From an uncultured bacterium (GTDB lineage: Bacteria > Fidelibacterota > Fidelibacteria > Fidelibacterales > Fidelibacteraceae): DNA of 39,152 nt. The stretch's first letter is position 1; the number at the start of each line of letters is the position of its first letter. The DNA lies in NCBI GenBank assembly GCA_964606395.1, contig CAZSGO010000001.1:14579-53730 (forward strand), read 5' to 3'. The notes below the pieces were generated by a model. It saw only the letters and a list, made by a program, of their open reading frames with translations. It had not been told where the DNA came from and did no database searches. Shown here piece after piece: positions 32,928-39,099 of this stretch. Made by a program: the position numbers and the translations under genes.

Positions 32928-34148
32928 ATGGAATTAGGTTCGAATGAAAAGGCATTAAACAGATCACTTACATCATACAATTGGTATGTGATCTTAACAA
33001 GAGCATATTTTTGGACGCCCCTTTTTGTCCTTTATTTTTCAACGGTCGTTACATTAAAACAAATATTTCTTTTAGAAGCTATATATTATGCGCTTGTATT
33101 TTTGCTTGAGGTTCCGTCGGGCTATTTCTCGGATTATGTCGGGCGAAAAATAACGCTTATCATTTCTGCGCTTAGTTTTTGTGTCGCTTATGTCCTGTTT
33201 TTTATCGGCGGCTCTTTTGGTGTTTTTGCCGGCGCTCAATTATTTTTGGCTGTCGGTTTTGCCTTTGCATCAGGAACAGATACTTCTCTGCATTATGCCA
33301 TTCTAACGTCACTTAATAAAGAATCGGAATATGGTCATCGGGAAGCCAAACTGGCATCTCAAGGTCTTATTTCAATTGCGCTAGCTGCTGTCATAGGTGG
33401 TCTGTTTGCGTGGTTGAACGAATATCGAATTGCGTACGGACTTTCTTTTGTTTTTGCTGCTTTTTCCTTCATCTTGGTCTTAATGATGAAAGACCCCGAA
33501 AACGAAAACACCCAAAAAGAAGAACCTTCGCACCCATTTCTGCAGATGAAAAACGTGTTTTTGAAACTAAAAGATCCGACTCTAAAATACTTATTTGTTT
33601 TTGCGGTTATCATTACGGTTCTAAACCATATACCATATGAGCTGTATCAAATTTACATTAATAGGATGTTGTTGTCTTTTAATGTCAAAAATATTTCAGG
33701 GGAGCTAAGTCCGTTAATTTTGGGGTTTCACACTGCCTTGAGTATGCTTATTGCATCTGTTTTTGCTCACCGGGCAATAAGGATCGGTAAGCTGGGCGGC
33801 ACCAAGGCAACTCTTCTTTTGGTAATAGGTCTTCAGACTGCCATGATTGCGATCATGGGTATTTCGGGCTCGTTTATCGTCGTCGCTTTGCTGATGCTTC
33901 GAGGTCTCCCCGGTGCTATCTCGGCTCCCATCGCAAGAGCTCAGACAACACATAAATTACCCTCAAATTTAAGAGCCACTTATTATTCAACGCAAAGCTT
34001 GTTGGGACGGCTTTCCTTTGCGCTGGTTTTGGTGATGTTTAATCTGGTCCCTGGGGATGGGTTTCGCAATTCTTTGATTTTGGGCAGCTCGATCGGGGTG
34101 GCGTTTCTTATAATACTTGCCCTGTTGCCTATAAATAAAAAACACTAG
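32928..34148 (+). CDS. MFS transporter
   Basis: It has about 12 predicted TM helices. The loop 2-3 motif is MFS-like (SGYFSDYVGRKITL). Confidence 0.85.
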   Translation: MELGSNEKALNRSLTSYNWYVILTRAYFWTPLFVLYFSTVVTLKQIFLLEAIYYALVFLLEVPSGYFSDYVGRKITLIISALSFCVAYVLFFIGGSFGVFAGAQLFLAVGFAFASGTDTSLHYAILTSLNKESEYGHREAKLASQGLISIALAAVIGGLFAWLNEYRIAYGLSFVFAAFSFILVLMMKDPENENTQKEEPSHPFLQMKNVFLKLKDPTLKYLFVFAVIITVLNHIPYELYQIYINRMLLSFNVKNISGELSPLILGFHTALSMLIASVFAHRAIRIGKLGGTKATLLLVIGLQTAMIAIMGISGSFIVVALLMLRGLPGAISAPIARAQTTHKLPSNLRATYYSTQSLLGRLSFALVLVMFNLVPGDGFRNSLILGSSIGVAFLIILALLPINKKH

Positions 34149-35017
34149 TTTCCATTGGTACCGTAAACCATTCCTCTGCCTTCGCCATTCGCAACGATCA
34201 ATCCGAGAGTTCTTAAAAACAAGAGATCCTTTTTTATGGTGTTCCTGCTTTCGTCCGGAAAGAATAACATAATATCAGAGATCTTAACGGGAGCATTTTT
34301 TGAAACACAATCAAGAAGCGATTGTCGGCGAGGATTTAAATATGGTTCCGATCCGGAGCGCGAAGATGTATCGAACGCTTCCGAGTAATAGTTATTCAAT
34401 AATAATAAAATTGATTCCGGTAGCACAACAAGCGAATCGTTCGAAATAGCACCATCGGGGTTATTTAAGAACGCTATTAGGGGTATTTGACCAACAACGG
34501 GATAATTATTGTTATACAACAACCCATACGCAAGAAAATTTGCGCACAAGGCGTTTCCTGTAACAAATGGCATGAGGTTAATGAAGGCTGACCGGAAAAG
34601 AGAAATGGTGAACAACGGATGGCGATCCTGTCTCTTGAGTGCGTTTTTTGTTTCAAAAAACAGAGAGCTCATGATCTCGTCAATATCCGTTCTGTAGTTG
34701 CCGCGACTTCCCTCGTCGCGCGCGCTATACTTAAATATTTTTCTATGCAGGGATTTGACCGAGGTGTTTGATAGAGAGAAATTATTATTATTTGCATGAA
34801 AATCTTGCAGCCATTCATAAGCGCCCGTAGCAACAAGGGCATCTCTGCTTTCGGGTTCTGAGTGTTGTGTCAACCCCGCGTTTTCTTTTAGTAGCGATTG
34901 TTCCGGAAAAGAAGAATCACCACTATATTGATAAATGCGGTCTATGCATCCGCAAGCCGCAATACACGCGTGTATGCTATCTTCAGAAAATGCCGATATT
35001 TTTAAAATAGTATCCAT
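34145..35017 (-). CDS. Fic-fold protein with a degenerate active-site motif and a C-terminal winged-helix domain
   Basis: The Fic core context reads RHPLFTISLFRSAFINL-MPFVTGNALCAN-FLAYGLL. The canonical HxFx(D/E)GNGRxxR is replaced by MPFVTGNALCAN (34538..34573). The C-terminus ISDIMLFFPDESRNTIKKDLLFLRTLGLIVANGEGRGMVY is wHTH-like. Confidence 0.7.
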   Translation of the reverse strand: MDTILKISAFSEDSIHACIAACGCIDRIYQYSGDSSFPEQSLLKENAGLTQHSEPESRDALVATGAYEWLQDFHANNNNFSLSNTSVKSLHRKIFKYSARDEGSRGNYRTDIDEIMSSLFFETKNALKRQDRHPLFTISLFRSAFINLMPFVTGNALCANFLAYGLLYNNNYPVVGQIPLIAFLNNPDGAISNDSLVVLPESILLLLNNYYSEAFDTSSRSGSEPYLNPRRQSLLDCVSKNAPVKISDIMLFFPDESRNTIKKDLLFLRTLGLIVANGEGRGMVYGTNGN

Positions 35018-36089: not shown

Positions 36090-36905
36090 TTAAACGTCTT
36101 TTGCCCGGTACTTATAGATCATGGTTGCGCCCACATAACAAAGCCCGGCAAACAATAGTCCGAAAAGAATGCGATAATCTCCCATGACAATTGACATGTT
36201 GATCTCTTCAATTTCATCAAGACCTATTGTACCGATCATGCTAACAATTGACTCAAATATGTTGGGCATGCTTATGTTATGGCGGAAGATCGCTTCAATA
36301 ATGGCAAACAGACCTTCAAGTATGCCAAGTCCGGCCAGACCAAGAATAAGAGCATTGTTTTTAAATACTGCAGAAAAGAAAAAGAACATAGACCCAAAAA
36401 CAAGCGCCACTTTAAGATAAGTCAGCCATCCAAGAAATGTGCCGTAGAGTGCTTGTCCCAGATAGAAACCATCAGCAAAGAACACACTGACGATACTGAG
36501 AATAATAGCGAATATTATACCCACACCCAATAAAAGCAGAGAACTTCCAAATATATGCATGAGATATTTAATGGCAGTTACCTTCCATGTACAAACAGGT
36601 TGACTGCGAAAAAACAAGTCAGACCCCAGCTGTTTTTCGCGATTTAGTGAGCTTTGGGCGCTCAGTGCCATAAACAGGGCAAAGACCATGCTAAAAGAGA
36701 ACATGACACCGTACATTCCTATTCGCAATCCTTCGCGGCTGCCGTCAGACCCGTACATAACGATATTCGGACTTTCGATGATCCAAGCAACAAGTGCGGC
36801 GATGAGCGAAAGGAGGGTTAATCCTGCAATAATCCAGACAGGCCACCAATAGGAGGATTTGCGTTTTTGATATTCTGTTAGAAGTAATGTTTTAATCTGA
36901 TTCAT
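36090..36905 (-). CDS. ABC-2-type transporter permease
   Basis: It has about 6 TM helices, follows the ABC ATPase after a 14-nt gap, and contains no other recognisable motif. Confidence 0.75.
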   Translation of the reverse strand: MNQIKTLLLTEYQKRKSSYWWPVWIIAGLTLLSLIAALVAWIIESPNIVMYGSDGSREGLRIGMYGVMFSFSMVFALFMALSAQSSLNREKQLGSDLFFRSQPVCTWKVTAIKYLMHIFGSSLLLLGVGIIFAIILSIVSVFFADGFYLGQALYGTFLGWLTYLKVALVFGSMFFFFSAVFKNNALILGLAGLGILEGLFAIIEAIFRHNISMPNIFESIVSMIGTIGLDEIEEINMSIVMGDYRILFGLLFAGLCYVGATMIYKYRAKDV

Positions 36906-36919
36906 TTTATTATCCTTCC

Positions 36920-37759
36920 TTATTGATTGACAACGGCAACAAAGATATCAGAAACACTGGGAATGGCAGTTGTTGCTCCTGATAGTTTAATATTGCCCTG
37001 GACCAGGCCGCGCACTTTACCCAGCGAGCGGCTTGTTGCTTTGGGGTTAAATGCCATTAGATCTTGCTCGCGATCTGAAGAAACTTCAACGATTGACCAA
37101 TCATTTTTAAGCTTATCAACCGGTTGGTGCAGTTTGATCTTACCGTGATCGATAAATACAACATCTTGCAAGATGTTCTCAACTTCGGCGACTTGGTGAG
37201 TTGAGATGATCACTGTTTTATTGTCATCAAAAAATTCGCCAAGAAGCAGATCATAGAATTCCTTACGAAAAACGATATCAAGTCCCAGTGTCGGTTCATC
37301 CAGCAAAAGAATATCAACATCTTTTGCAAGTGTTAGCATAAGATAAAGTTTAGTTTTCATTCCCTTGGAAAGTGTCTTGACCTTTTGATCGCGGGGGAGT
37401 TCGCTTTTTGCAAAAAGACGTTCCGCTTTATCATAATTCCAAGAGGGGTTTATTCCCGCTGCATAATCTATTGTCTGCTGTACGGTTAGCCTCGGATCCA
37501 ATCCACTAACATCCGGAATAAAAGCTACCCGGGTGTGAAGGTCGTAATTCCATTCTTTGAGAGATTTGCCAAAAAACGCTACATCGCCCTCATAGTGTAA
37601 AAAATCCAAGAGGCACTTAAGAAGCGTTGATTTTCCCGCTCCATTTTTACCCAGGAGACCGACAATGCGTCCACGGGGGATCTGAAGATCTATGTCCTCG
37701 AGCGCGCGGACTTGCTTATAGTCTTTTGTCAGTCCATTGATGTTAATTACATTTTCCAT
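36920..37759 (-). CDS. ABC transporter ATP-binding protein
   Basis: It has Walker A (GLLGKNGAGKST), the signature LSKGMKTKL, Walker B (ILLLDEPT) and the H-loop (ISTHQ). Confidence 0.93.
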   Translation of the reverse strand: MENVININGLTKDYKQVRALEDIDLQIPRGRIVGLLGKNGAGKSTLLKCLLDFLHYEGDVAFFGKSLKEWNYDLHTRVAFIPDVSGLDPRLTVQQTIDYAAGINPSWNYDKAERLFAKSELPRDQKVKTLSKGMKTKLYLMLTLAKDVDILLLDEPTLGLDIVFRKEFYDLLLGEFFDDNKTVIISTHQVAEVENILQDVVFIDHGKIKLHQPVDKLKNDWSIVEVSSDREQDLMAFNPKATSRSLGKVRGLVQGNIKLSGATTAIPSVSDIFVAVVNQ

Positions 37760-37838
37760 AATAATCCTTATTCTCTATTTGTTTAAATTTTATCACAGTT
37801 TCTTTGGTCTGAATATGAAAAGGGGTATCACTTTTTTA

Positions 37839-37892
37839 TCAATTTTTGATCTCGTTCGAAAGTAAAAATAATCTTGGTGTCTTAGAAAACAT
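37839..37892 (-). CDS. Possible 4th mini-ORF, 17 aa (MFSKTPRLFLLSNEIKN)
   Basis: This is a hand translation. It shares the N-terminal MFSK with the upstream mini-ORF using different codons, and AGGA lies 8 nt upstream. It lacks the clear C-terminal family motif. Confidence 0.2.
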   Translation of the reverse strand: MFSKTPRLFLLSNEIKN

Positions 37893-37901
37893 GTGATGAT
37901 C

Positions 37902-37994
37902 CTACTTCACCGATTTGATGATGCGGATCGACATTGCCTGAACATAAGACATTGTCTTGCAATGTTGTTTCATCATTCCGCATTTACTGAACAT
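37902..37994 (-). CDS. Mini-ORF, 30 aa cationic peptide (MFSKCGMMKQHCKTMSYVQAMSIRIIKSVK)
   Basis: This is a hand translation. The SD-like GAAAGGGG lies 5 nt upstream of the ATG. The C-terminal motif YVQAMSIRIIKS is paralogous to the peptide at 38173..38262. Confidence 0.5.
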   Translation of the reverse strand: MFSKCGMMKQHCKTMSYVQAMSIRIIKSVK

Positions 37995-38022
37995 TTTAAC
38001 CCCTTTCACGTTATGGTTCTTA

Positions 38023-38118
38023 TTATTGTGCTCTGACATTGCGAATTGATAGGTGTTCGCGGTAGTTTCTTAAATATTTCATGTTGTCCCTTTCAGTTAT
38101 TGTCTTTACTTGATTCAT
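38023..38118 (-). CDS. Mini-ORF, 31 aa (MNQVKTITERDNMKYLRNYREHLSIRNVRAQ), or 19 aa from the internal ATG at 38082
   Basis: This is a hand translation. The internal ATG is preceded by GAAAGGGA, the same context as the next mini-ORF. The C-terminus YREHLSIRNVRA matches the family motif. Confidence 0.4.
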   Translation of the reverse strand: MNQVKTITERDNMKYLRNYREHLSIRNVRAQ

Positions 38119-38172
38119 TGATCTTGTCTCTTGAATCTTAAACCTTCTCTGTTTCCTTTCAGGCCATCTAGC

Positions 38173-38262
38173 TTAGCGGGCAGCTTTGATGACACCGATT
38201 GACATGGCGCGCACATAGAGTAATGTGCTATTGCGACGGCTGATCAGTGTGTTCTTAAACAT
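38173..38262 (-). CDS. Mini-ORF, 29 aa cationic peptide (MFKNTLISRRNSTLLYVRAMSIGVIKAAR)
   Basis: This is a hand translation. A strong SD, AGGAGA, lies 6 nt upstream of the ATG, and the ORF begins 26 nt after the GntR stop. The C-terminus YVRAMSIGVIKA matches the family motif. Confidence 0.55.
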   Translation of the reverse strand: MFKNTLISRRNSTLLYVRAMSIGVIKAAR

Positions 38263-38288
38263 GGTTTTTCTCCTAAAAATTTGTTTTC

Positions 38289-38657
38289 TTATTTATCGAA
38301 TTTTTCTTCGATTAATGTACATAATTCGTTTTTACTTATATTTAGCATCTTGGCCTGCTTGATCATGTCCGGAACGGTAATGTCTTCAAACTGAATAACA
38401 CCTGATTCTTTTAAAACGGCTTGTGCGGGATCGGTAACAAAATGTCCTTGTCCGCGTCGTTTTTCAAGAAGTCCTTCGTTGACGAGAAGTTGTGTGGCGT
38501 TTAATACTGTCTGAGGGTTTAGGCGATATTCGGCAGACATCTGTCGAACGGAGGGGATAGCTTCTCCGCTTTTCAGCGCACCGGACATGATCGACTCTCT
38601 TACGAGATCGGCCAATTGGAGGTATATAGCTTTTGAACTGTCGAAGTTAATGCTCAT
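38289..38657 (-). CDS. GntR-family transcriptional regulator, YtrA subfamily (short C-terminal domain)
   Basis: The GntR wHTH reads IYLQLADLVRESIMSGALKSGEAIPSVRQMSAEYRLNPQTVLNATQLLVNEGLLEKRRGQGHFV. The total length is only 122 aa. It is the first gene of an operon with an ABC ATPase and an ABC-2 permease. Confidence 0.9.
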   Translation of the reverse strand: MSINFDSSKAIYLQLADLVRESIMSGALKSGEAIPSVRQMSAEYRLNPQTVLNATQLLVNEGLLEKRRGQGHFVTDPAQAVLKESGVIQFEDITVPDMIKQAKMLNISKNELCTLIEEKFDK

Positions 38658-38708
38658 TGTGGTTCTCTTTCTGTTTCAATTCACACCAGTATTCCAGTGT
38701 TCTACATG

Positions 38709-38737
38709 AGTATAACACCAATACACGAAATATGCAA
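38709..38737 (-). promoter_or_regulatory. Candidate sigma70-like promoter of the GntR operon, TTGCAT-N17-TATACT (minus strand)
   Basis: Read directly from the sequence. The -35 element is one of two direct repeats AAATATGCAA (38728..38737 and 38741..38750 on plus). Confidence 0.4.
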
Positions 38738-39099
38738 GAAAAATATGCAATAAAATTCAATTATTTTAAAAAAATATCACAATCTCCTTTATTTATGCGG
38801 ATAAAATAATTACACAATATTTAAAAAATATTGTTAAAAAGTGTGTAAGGGGTGTTGCAGGTGTTCTATTTGAGGGTAAAATGGACATAAAATCCCGGAC
38901 ATGTATTTTAAAAGGTCTGTTATAATGTATTGCTTGTACAAGATATTGTATACTCTTGAAGAATTATACACAATTGACGACAGCCTGTAAAAATATAGAT
39001 AATTAATGACGATCAATCAGTAAAAAATGTTTGCCTTTCAGCAATTTATGCCACATATTACAGGGCTTTGTCTGAATATATGTGTTAAAGGAGAATAAG

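Follow-up and report, generated by a model that had tools for sequence, protein, structure and literature searches.

Modules that join a YtrA-type repressor of the GntR family to an ATP-binding cassette (ABC) transporter are widespread, but few of the natural ligands and substrates have been identified (PMC12772383, PMC5080381). In Bacillus they serve as reporters of antibiotic stress, and in Staphylococcus aureus such a module is needed for survival of the producer during the production of phenol-soluble modulins (PSMs) (PMC12772383, PMC5080381). The S. aureus regulator PmtR represses pmtR-pmtABCD until it is bound by PSM peptides, the cargo of this transporter, which detach it from the pmt promoter (PMC5080381). 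For Bacillus subtilis, it is not known what induces YtrA or what YtrBCDEF transports, and the operon includes the small membrane protein YtrG (PMC12772383). Here we describe a locus of this kind in a 39-kb stretch of DNA (39,152 nucleotides, hereafter the window) from an uncultured bacterium of the phylum Fidelibacterota (assembly GCA_964606395.1, contig CAZSGO010000001.1, positions 14,579 to 53,730). Between the genes for a short YtrA-type repressor and an ABC ATPase lie three mini-genes, P1, P3 and P2, which the comparison of orthologous loci shows to be real genes under purifying selection and which are predicted to be translated in vivo.

Genome annotation misses most proteins of less than 30 aa. 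The mini-genes provide a comparatively validated small-protein example in the barely studied phylum Fidelibacterota/Marinimicrobia, which is uncultivated and occurs in marine and sediment habitats. In the literature we found no description of a YtrA operon with peptide genes placed between the repressor and ABC genes, in line with the view of a first-pass annotation of this DNA, which did not recognise the arrangement as a described system in this kind of organism. To judge from the searches reported below, the peptide family is new and has no annotated or characterised homologue.

The mini-genes as coding sequences

The spacer between the repressor and ATPase genes comprises 529 bp (37760..38288) and is read on the minus strand. 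It holds three mini-genes of one family, the first of which starts 26 nt past the GntR stop, and no open reading frame (ORF) of 60 aa or more, the longest having 45-47 aa. The first-pass annotation had read P1, P3 and P2 here, each behind a purine-rich ribosome-binding site (RBS), and we recovered all three frames exactly as it gave them (Table 1). The C-terminal motif that it had seen in all three peptides is real, as are the synonymous codon changes that separate P1 from P2. It had left two starts for P3; homology supports the inner ATG at 38082, behind the family RBS CTGAAAGGGA, and the outer in-frame ATG at 38118 is not a conserved start.

Orthologous loci (L numbers) were collected from metagenome-assembled genomes (MAGs) of Fidelibacterota (Marinimicrobia) and from metagenomes. 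A permease search of the GTDB species genomes gave eight loci at 89-60% identity, peptide patterns in metagenomes gave four, and the remainder came from look-ups of exact proteins. Those GTDB loci that have a phylum label are assigned to Candidatus Neomarinimicrobiota or Fidelibacterota, and one locus is labelled Fusibacter. A 1.25-Mb contig titled 'uncultured Fusibacter sp.' (Firmicutes) carries a peptide array (L010, CAXXWR010000006.1); its GntR, ABC and permease proteins are 70-82% identical to Fidelibacterota proteins, and its taxonomic label is probably wrong.

Every locus that reaches the interval between the GntR and ABC genes has one to four mini-ORFs of the same family in the same place. 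The spacer behind the last peptide is poorly conserved (0.59). The mini-ORFs fall into four orthologue groups: A1, MFKNTLISRRNSTLLYVRAMSIGVIKAAR; A2, MFSNNLIRRHSNSMSYVRAMSIRIIRSAK; A3, MFSKCGMMKQHCKTMSYVQAMSIRIIKSVK; and B, of 18-19 aa, MKYLKTYRYHLSIRNVRG. The window has the set A1, B, A3, and its relatives have A1-A2-A3, B-A2-A3, B-B-A3 or A1-B-A2-A3. Orthologues of P1 are present in L007, L014, L008, L009 and L016, orthologues or paralogues of P3 in L006, L015, L013 (two copies), L010 (two copies) and L016, and those of P2, the best-conserved part of the spacer (column identity 0.87), comprise 11 distinct sequences. P1 and P2 align with a Smith-Waterman score of 49, against 16 +/- 3.3 for shuffled sequences, none of which scored as high in 5000 trials. 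The similarity of P2 and P3 is marginal in the window alone (p = 0.025) and was established through orthologues. In a six-frame scan of the window, the profile matched P1 with an E-value of 1.8e-16 and P2 with 1.4e-19. P3 is a derivative of the A2 type that was shortened at the N-terminus; the RBS CTGAAAGG(G/A)A and the core DNA TCAATTCG are common to P3 and the A2 genes.

Third-position substitutions are in excess in all four orthologue groups, with counts by codon position of 9/10/31 for A1 (P1), 27/20/61 for A2, 93/109/231 for A3 (P2, seven sequences) and 9/10/29 for B (P3). The Nei-Gojobori ratio of non-synonymous to synonymous substitution rates (dN/dS) of the mini-ORFs is 0.14-0.25 in frame and 0.94-3.1 in shifted frames (P1, 0.14 vs 1.2 and 3.1; P3, 0.14 vs 1.2-1.9; P2, 0.16 vs 0.9-1.5 for 11 sequences). 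The in-frame values are close to those of the flanking genes for GntR (0.11) and the ABC ATPase (0.06). Among the six frames, the sense frame alone combines a lack of stops with a low dN/dS; the -1 frame reaches 0.37 only through shared wobble positions and has 1.3 stops per sequence. Both the N- and the C-terminal halves of the peptides are constrained (dN/dS 0.10-0.16). A Shine-Dalgarno core lies 4-16 nt upstream in 41 of 43 copies, compared to 8% of all ATGs in the window. Start, stop and length of the mini-ORFs are retained from 40% to 54% GC. L025 (52% GC) has very different DNA, yet its spacer contains ORFs of 30 and 31 aa behind the same operator, which end in ...LRIIxxVR and ...MRIFxxVR and rank first and fourth among the sub-threshold profile matches from about 3,900 six-frame fragments.

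A non-coding structured RNA or a DNA repeat could mimic reading frames, and two features recall one: a 33-nt direct repeat of 76% identity connects P1 and P2, and a two-stem hairpin can be drawn inside P2 (37984..37922; ATGCGGA/TCCGCAT and ACATTGC/GCAATGT), as well as in close relatives. However, this hairpin has a z-score of only -1.05, and synonymous changes break its pairs with no compensation (L008, L010, L011). RNAalifold returned one hairpin in A3 from seven loci, with a covariation term of +0.49, folding z-scores ranged from -1.6 to +0.1 for eight mini-ORFs and amounted to -0.48 for the whole spacer, and Rfam gave no match at E-values up to 1. Considering also the codon periodicity, the dN/dS values, the stop-free frames, the placement of the RBS and the conservation of protein, not DNA, over 40-54% GC, a non-coding explanation is essentially excluded, and the earlier interpretation as selection on peptides stands.

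Other frames of the spacer were rejected as genes. Antisense or overlapping ORFs (such as the 33-aa MCAPCQ... and MRNDETT... ORFs and a 47-aa ORF on the plus strand) were dismissed, as every frame other than the sense frame has stops and a dN/dS of about 1. The doubtful fourth mini-ORF of the first-pass annotation, P4 (37839..37892, minus strand), had to be given up as a family member: 1-nt indels among close relatives shift its frame, so that the region encodes the three unrelated peptides MFSKTPRLFLLSNEIKN, MFLKLTILFLFANVIIRLIW... and MLSKTTKTIFNRERNQRLIRK, and more distant loci show no conservation there at all. Close relatives share in the P4 region a DNA motif, TATTTTTAATCGCGAACGCGACCA, with the palindrome TCGCG-AA-CGCGA (tails of L007, L006 and L009), which is conserved as DNA and not as a reading frame; the window copy is degenerate (37868..37844, minus strand). 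An orphan RBS-like motif, CCTGAAAGGAAAC, lies past the P1 stop at about 38160..38148 (minus strand) with no ORF behind it; the CTGAAAGG(G/A)A motif also precedes B-type and most A2-type mini-genes, and the orphan copy may be the relic of a lost repeat unit. A derivation of the peptides from operon proteins, or mimicry of these (e.g. VRQMS in the GntR helix-turn-helix), was discarded as well, the profile giving no significant match to the operon proteins.

Locus organization and distribution

On the minus strand the promoter is followed by the genes for GntR, the peptides, the ABC ATPase, the permease and a BirA-like protein, and in near-identical metagenome contigs rnpA and rpmH lie upstream on the opposite strand.

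Table 1. Features of the peptide locus (positions refer to the window)
Feature	Position	Strand	Description	Associated signal or evidence
P1 (A1 type)	38173..38262	minus	29 aa, MFKNTLISRRNSTLLYVRAMSIGVIKAAR, charge +6	RBS AGGAG 38274..38270
P3 (B type)	38023..38082	minus	19 aa, MKYLRNYREHLSIRNVRAQ, charge +4	RBS AAGGGA 38092..38087
P2 (A3 type)	37902..37994	minus	30 aa, MFSKCGMMKQHCKTMSYVQAMSIRIIKSVK, charge +6	RBS AAGGGG 38005..38000
YtrA-subfamily GntR repressor gene	38289..38657	minus	122 aa, short YtrA-type	Pfam GntR 1.5e-13, residues 12-74
ABC ATPase gene	36920..37759	minus	279 aa, PmtA-like	Pfam ABC_tran 6e-27
Permease gene	36090..36905	minus	271 aa, six-helix, lineage-specific, ABC-2/type V exporter-like	AlphaFold2 model and family search
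Predicted sigma-70-like promoter	38709..38737	minus	-35 TTGCAT 38737..38732, 17-nt spacer, -10 TATACT 38714..38709	preceding TGT (extended -10-like)
Putative YtrA/GntR operator	38697..38719	minus	inverted repeat GTGTTATAC-TCAT-GTAGAACAC over the -10 box	flanking TA(T/C)TGGTGT half-site-like repeats

The flanking genes are, as first annotated, those of a short YtrA-type GntR protein and of an ABC ATPase with its permease. Members of the YtrA subfamily combine an N-terminal winged-helix GntR domain with a C-terminal domain of ~50 aa in a total of about 120-130 aa, and the 122-aa protein has this domain structure. Its best NCBIfam model is PmtR (NF047563; 57.8 bits, E 1.1e-15, full-length alignment), at a cut-off of 200 bits that it does not reach, and its closest PDB relatives are the short YtrA-type GntRs 3tqn, 2du9/2ek5 (Cgl2947), 3neu and 4r1h. 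The best NCBIfam model of the ATPase is PmtA (NF047565; 7e-49, 166.6 bits, likewise below its cut-off of 350), followed by DrrA (5e-36). The permease has no sequence match in Pfam, NCBIfam or PDB; the nearest structures to its AlphaFold2 model (predicted local distance difference test, pLDDT, 77) are, by a weak match, NosY, ABCG and ABCA (E 0.011, TM-score 0.52), which suggests an ABC-2/type V exporter fold. An assignment to anti-phage defence was dropped, as the ATPase shows generic P-loop similarity only. Downstream of the BirA-like gene, a 290-aa ORF (34145..35017, minus strand) without a match in Pfam or PADLOC is conserved in the same place in type-1 loci (see below; L001, L002, L018 and L023).

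The predicted promoter is the only such match in the window and is nearly invariant in ten aligned loci of both types described below; in L025 it reads TTGACA-17-TATACT. The operator sequence GGTGTTATACTNNTGTAGAACAC is unique in the window even with three mismatches allowed. A single copy of it precedes GntR in each of 12 loci, type-2 loci among them, and it is also readable in L025. Its columns are invariant in the alignment, as are almost all of the 60 bp upstream of GntR in both locus types. The GntR protein presumably binds this operator. The combination of ABC genes and a palindromic operator at the promoter is that of a YtrA-type operon, for which autoregulation is putative. Since the stretch from GntR to the ABC gene has no coding-strand terminator and no further copy of the operator, the simplest reading of the sequence is one autorepressed transcript for repressor, peptides and exporter. 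Two to three direct repeats of AAATATGCAAGAAAAATAT (38728..38777) lie upstream of the promoter and overlap the -35 box, within an AT-rich region of ~500 bp between GntR and the window end, beyond which rnpA/rpmH follow (L001, L003).

The peptide profile found eight clusters among 5.8 billion proteins, and an exhaustive HMMER pass over 1.84 billion representatives gave seven genuine clusters of 29-35 aa, all unnamed; two further matches, to repeat proteins, were spurious. P1 is already called as a 29-aa gene in ENA assemblies, and gene calls of the relatives' contigs include some copies of the mini-genes, none of them named. Homologues are limited to unannotated Fidelibacterota peptides of 29-35 aa. 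No matches were found on viral contigs, and the family-A profile has no match elsewhere in the window. The permease family (271-276 aa) comprises 37 clusters among 5.8e9 proteins, with every given source name being Marinimicrobia/Fidelibacterota. All loci found via the peptides are GntR-ABC-permease operons, so the peptide family is strictly linked to this lineage-specific repressor-exporter operon. Even in species with a permease identity of 56-60% the locus keeps its place between rnpA/rpmH and birA, which indicates a core-syntenic, vertically inherited locus.

Two types of locus can be distinguished, and both are present in one MAG (L008, L021). In type 1 the permease is 60-99% identical to that of the window and is followed by birA. 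In type 2 it is 44-51% identical and the locus continues on the same strand, with tight spacing, into genes for two DUF2807 proteins, a TolC-like outer-membrane efflux protein (OEP), a MacA-like membrane fusion protein (MFP), a MacB-type ATPase and two MacB/FtsX permeases (L024:8316-18260; also L019, L021 and L025; permease domain MacB_PCD/FtsX). Between the types, GntR is 87-88% identical, the ATPase 65% and the permease 46%, the operator is identical and the first peptide is about 75-80% identical by eye. Due to the same operator sequence, type-1 and type-2 loci probably form one regulon. In type-2 loci GntR is immediately followed by one peptide gene only, of A2-like type, and then by a conserved ORF of 82-112 aa (L019:2384-2632, L021:2351-2629, L024:8881-9129, L017:929-1267). 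This ORF is hydrophilic (..GVKQCCPFLTRxRFYK..KKIF..EKKRK..MMYYL) and has no match in Pfam or NCBIfam and no convincing counterpart in type-1 spacers; its homology to the P4 region or to a frameshifted A3 was rejected, with only weak and inconsistent tblastn matches.

In more distant YtrA operons of Marinimicrobia (GntR 52-56% identical), the GntR stop overlaps the ABC start, the permease is a different one of 319-332 aa and peptides are lacking; a profile search for hidden family members in these operons found none. Since GntR and ABC genes overlap in these relatives, which have another permease and no peptides, the peptide-bearing spacer is a lineage innovation that arose together with this permease type, the peptide family having been inserted exactly at the GntR/ATPase overlap point. 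The distant operons (L026:4001-5229, L027:4001-5226, L028:4001-5235) have an OEP gene downstream, and in L027 and L028 also a Yip1-family gene; a YIP1 gene is part of the thucin A bacteriocin cluster as well (PMC9484092).

Possible roles of the peptides

The peptides had been described as strongly basic and free of hydrophobic segments, which is borne out by charges of +4 to +7. Across the family the net charge is +3 to +7, with a grand average of hydropathy of about -1.3 to +0.45 and again no hydrophobic segment. The three tandem paralogues have no leader and no double-glycine motif. Because of the specificity of methionine aminopeptidase, the initiator Met would be retained at the conserved N-terminal Met-Phe. 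AlphaFold2 models A3 (P2) as a single helix of residues 4-29 (pLDDT 73), and the B type shows a beta-like alternation. The maximum 11-residue hydrophobic moment of the peptides has z-scores of -2 to +1.5, no higher than shuffled sequences, compared to +1.8 to +2.6 for PSM-alpha1, PSM-alpha3, delta-toxin, magainin and LL-37, or about +1.3 to +2.6 with AurA included. The peptides are therefore not amphipathic and fairly polar.

We tentatively propose, giving it somewhat less than even weight, that the co-evolved ABC-2 exporter has the peptides as its dedicated cargo, that they act as effectors on the YtrA repressor, or both, by analogy to the logic of PmtR and the PSMs. When the repressor leaves its operator, repressor, peptides and exporter would be produced together, with three leaderless basic peptides separately translated from one operator-controlled promoter alongside a YtrA-type autorepressor and a PmtA-like exporter. 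The exporter would carry the peptides as its dedicated cargo, at the paralogous locus they would be handed on to a TolC/MacA/MacB pump, and the cytoplasmic peptide pool may also feed back on the YtrA repressor as PSMs do on PmtR in S. aureus. In agreement with this, the type-2 paralogue runs into the two DUF2807, OEP, MFP and MacB-type genes, a possible export route.

Several points weigh against cargo and effector functions of this kind. Translation in vivo, export and an effect on the repressor are all steps that we infer from sequence. As non-amphipathic and fairly polar molecules, the peptides differ from the known Pmt cargo and from leaderless bacteriocins. The PmtR and PmtA models score far under their equivalog cut-offs and the permease is not recognisably PmtB/D-like, and adjacency to MacAB-TolC genes is no proof of a shared pathway. 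Moreover, ATPase and permease differ far more between the paralogous loci than repressor and peptide do, a pattern that would fit a pairing of peptide and repressor at least as well as one of peptide and permease.

This last point leads to the main rival, which we regard as unlikely although it deserves serious attention, namely that the peptides always stay inside the cell and have a purely accessory or regulatory function. By acting on the YtrA protein as anti- or co-repressors, or by modulating the ABC ATPase, they could tune the operon through positive or negative feedback, or the activity of the transporter. The identical operator and the closely similar GntR and first peptide of the two locus types, next to permeases of low identity, speak for such a role, and the polar, highly basic peptides are not membrane-active in character. 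No natural effectors are known for regulators of the YtrA type, whose C-terminal domain is deemed too small for classical ligands (PMC5080381; PMC12772383), which also favours a peptide partner. On the other hand, peptide and permease families share their phyletic distribution and the peptide-less relatives have a different permease, and three to four diverged paralogues, each conserved as a separate orthologue group, exceed what simple feedback by a ligand would require.

Rather improbable, in our estimate, is a further variant in which the peptides are endogenous reporter substrates, which are co-transcribed and continuously pumped out so that the residual cytoplasmic level reports load or impairment of the exporter to the YtrA repressor. 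If true, this would be a genetically encoded flux sensor. It would explain how YtrA regulators, poor in effector domains, sense envelope or transport stress, and the divergence of the paralogues (A1, A2, A3, B) would serve to adjust the response or to target the two paralogous exporters that share one operator.

Sequence-specific regulation by nascent peptides occurs in other transport and resistance genes. The conserved C-terminal core 3-4 residues before the stop codon and the location upstream of transporter genes would suit cis-acting leader peptides that arrest the ribosome at ...AMSIRIIK... and so control the ABC genes downstream. We consider this highly improbable: there are three to four copies with an RBS each, the N-terminal halves are constrained as strongly as the C-terminal ones, and 140-200 nt of unstructured, A-rich and poorly conserved spacer separate the last peptide from the ABC start. 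In type-2 loci the 82-112 aa ORF intervenes, and no terminator or antiterminator and no RBS-sequestering structure was found. A role as dedicated cargo and/or repressor effectors remains our preferred reading, and the systems closest to it are compared below.

Comparison with known systems

The best structural match of the permease model is NosY of NosDFY, and the beta-rich DUF2807 proteins behind the permease of type-2 loci loosely recall the docking of NosD on NosY. However, the match is weak, with 14% identity, no nos genes lie nearby, and the likeness is at the general level of the ABC-2 fold.

Leaderless bacteriocins are hydrophobic or amphipathic, rich in Gly or Trp, and of Firmicutes origin. 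Their clusters are typically mobile and patchily distributed and contain a dedicated immunity gene. With aureocin A70 and garvicin KS the locus shares an arrangement of three to four tandem paralogous peptides of ~30 aa beside ABC/HlyD-type export genes, here directly upstream of the ABC genes, and a likely formyl-Met N-terminus, with which the presumably retained Met-Phe is compatible. Known leaderless clusters can also hold GntR, ABC/HlyD and YIP1 genes, with the thucin A cluster having both a GntR regulator and a YIP1 protein (PMC9484092), and the paralogous locus provides TolC, MFP and MacB genes. A multi-peptide bacteriocin of the aureocin A70, garvicin KS or thucin type, with the ABC transporter serving in secretion and self-immunity, is nevertheless distinctly improbable. 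The peptides are polar and basic, they have neither amphipathicity nor the Gly/Trp-rich character of AurA, and B-type copies have only 18-19 aa. The locus occupies a core position, with rnpA/rpmH on one side and birA on the other, keeps its synteny and has diverged vertically to 56-60% permease identity; horizontal transfer was suggested for the thucin A cluster by its authors (PMC9484092). Selection on the peptides is purifying, not diversifying, no candidate immunity gene was found, and the host belongs to the Fibrobacteres-Chlorobi-Bacteroidetes (FCB) group and is presumed to be diderm. The likeness to aureocin A70 noted in the first-pass annotation does not extend to any shared sequence feature. 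Because the peptides are non-amphipathic, core-syntenic and vertically inherited, a PSM-like toxin or bacteriocin role is unlikely.

In B. subtilis, YtrA controls its own operon, ytrGABCDEF, which contains an ABC ATPase with ABC-2-like permeases and a second ATPase with a MacB/FtsX-type permease (PMC12772383, PMC8060467). The type-2 paralogue has the same modular content, and like the type-1 and type-2 loci the ytr operon holds a small-protein gene, ytrG. However, the ytrG gene precedes ytrA and encodes just one small transmembrane protein, in contrast to the tandem family of soluble basic peptides between regulator and ATPase described here, and YtrG has no sequence relationship to the window peptides. 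Type-2 loci differ by their additional DUF2807, TolC-like and MacA-like genes, which suit a diderm envelope, and by analogy they may be regarded as the diderm counterpart of the ytr architecture.

The closest parallel is the PmtR/PmtABCD/PSM system of S. aureus (PMC5080381). As there, the gene of a short YtrA-subfamily autorepressor, putative in our case, has those of an ABC ATPase and an ABC-2-type permease directly downstream in the same operon. Among curated models, PmtR gives the highest score for the regulator and PmtA for the ATPase, and this part of the analogy drawn earlier holds at the level of distant homology. In the Pmt system small leaderless tandem peptides (psm-alpha1-4) are both the cargo and the effector that removes PmtR from its operator. 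The differences are substantial: both model scores are well below the cut-offs, one ATPase and one permease replace two of each, and the permease matches no sequence model (nor one for PmtB/D, should there be any). Here the regulator-exporter operon itself contains the peptide genes; those for the PSMs are located elsewhere and are agr-controlled. Unlike PSMs, the peptides are strongly basic, polar and without an amphipathic-helix signature or sequence similarity to PSMs, and unlike S. aureus the organism belongs to the FCB group and is presumably diderm. The logic of small peptides, GntR repressor and ABC exporter is already known from Pmt/PSM and leaderless-bacteriocin clusters. An operon that carries its own candidate ligand or cargo would be a self-contained and portable test bed of about 2.7 kb (38760..36090), which could reveal what YtrA-type regulators sense and what such ABC-2 exporters move.

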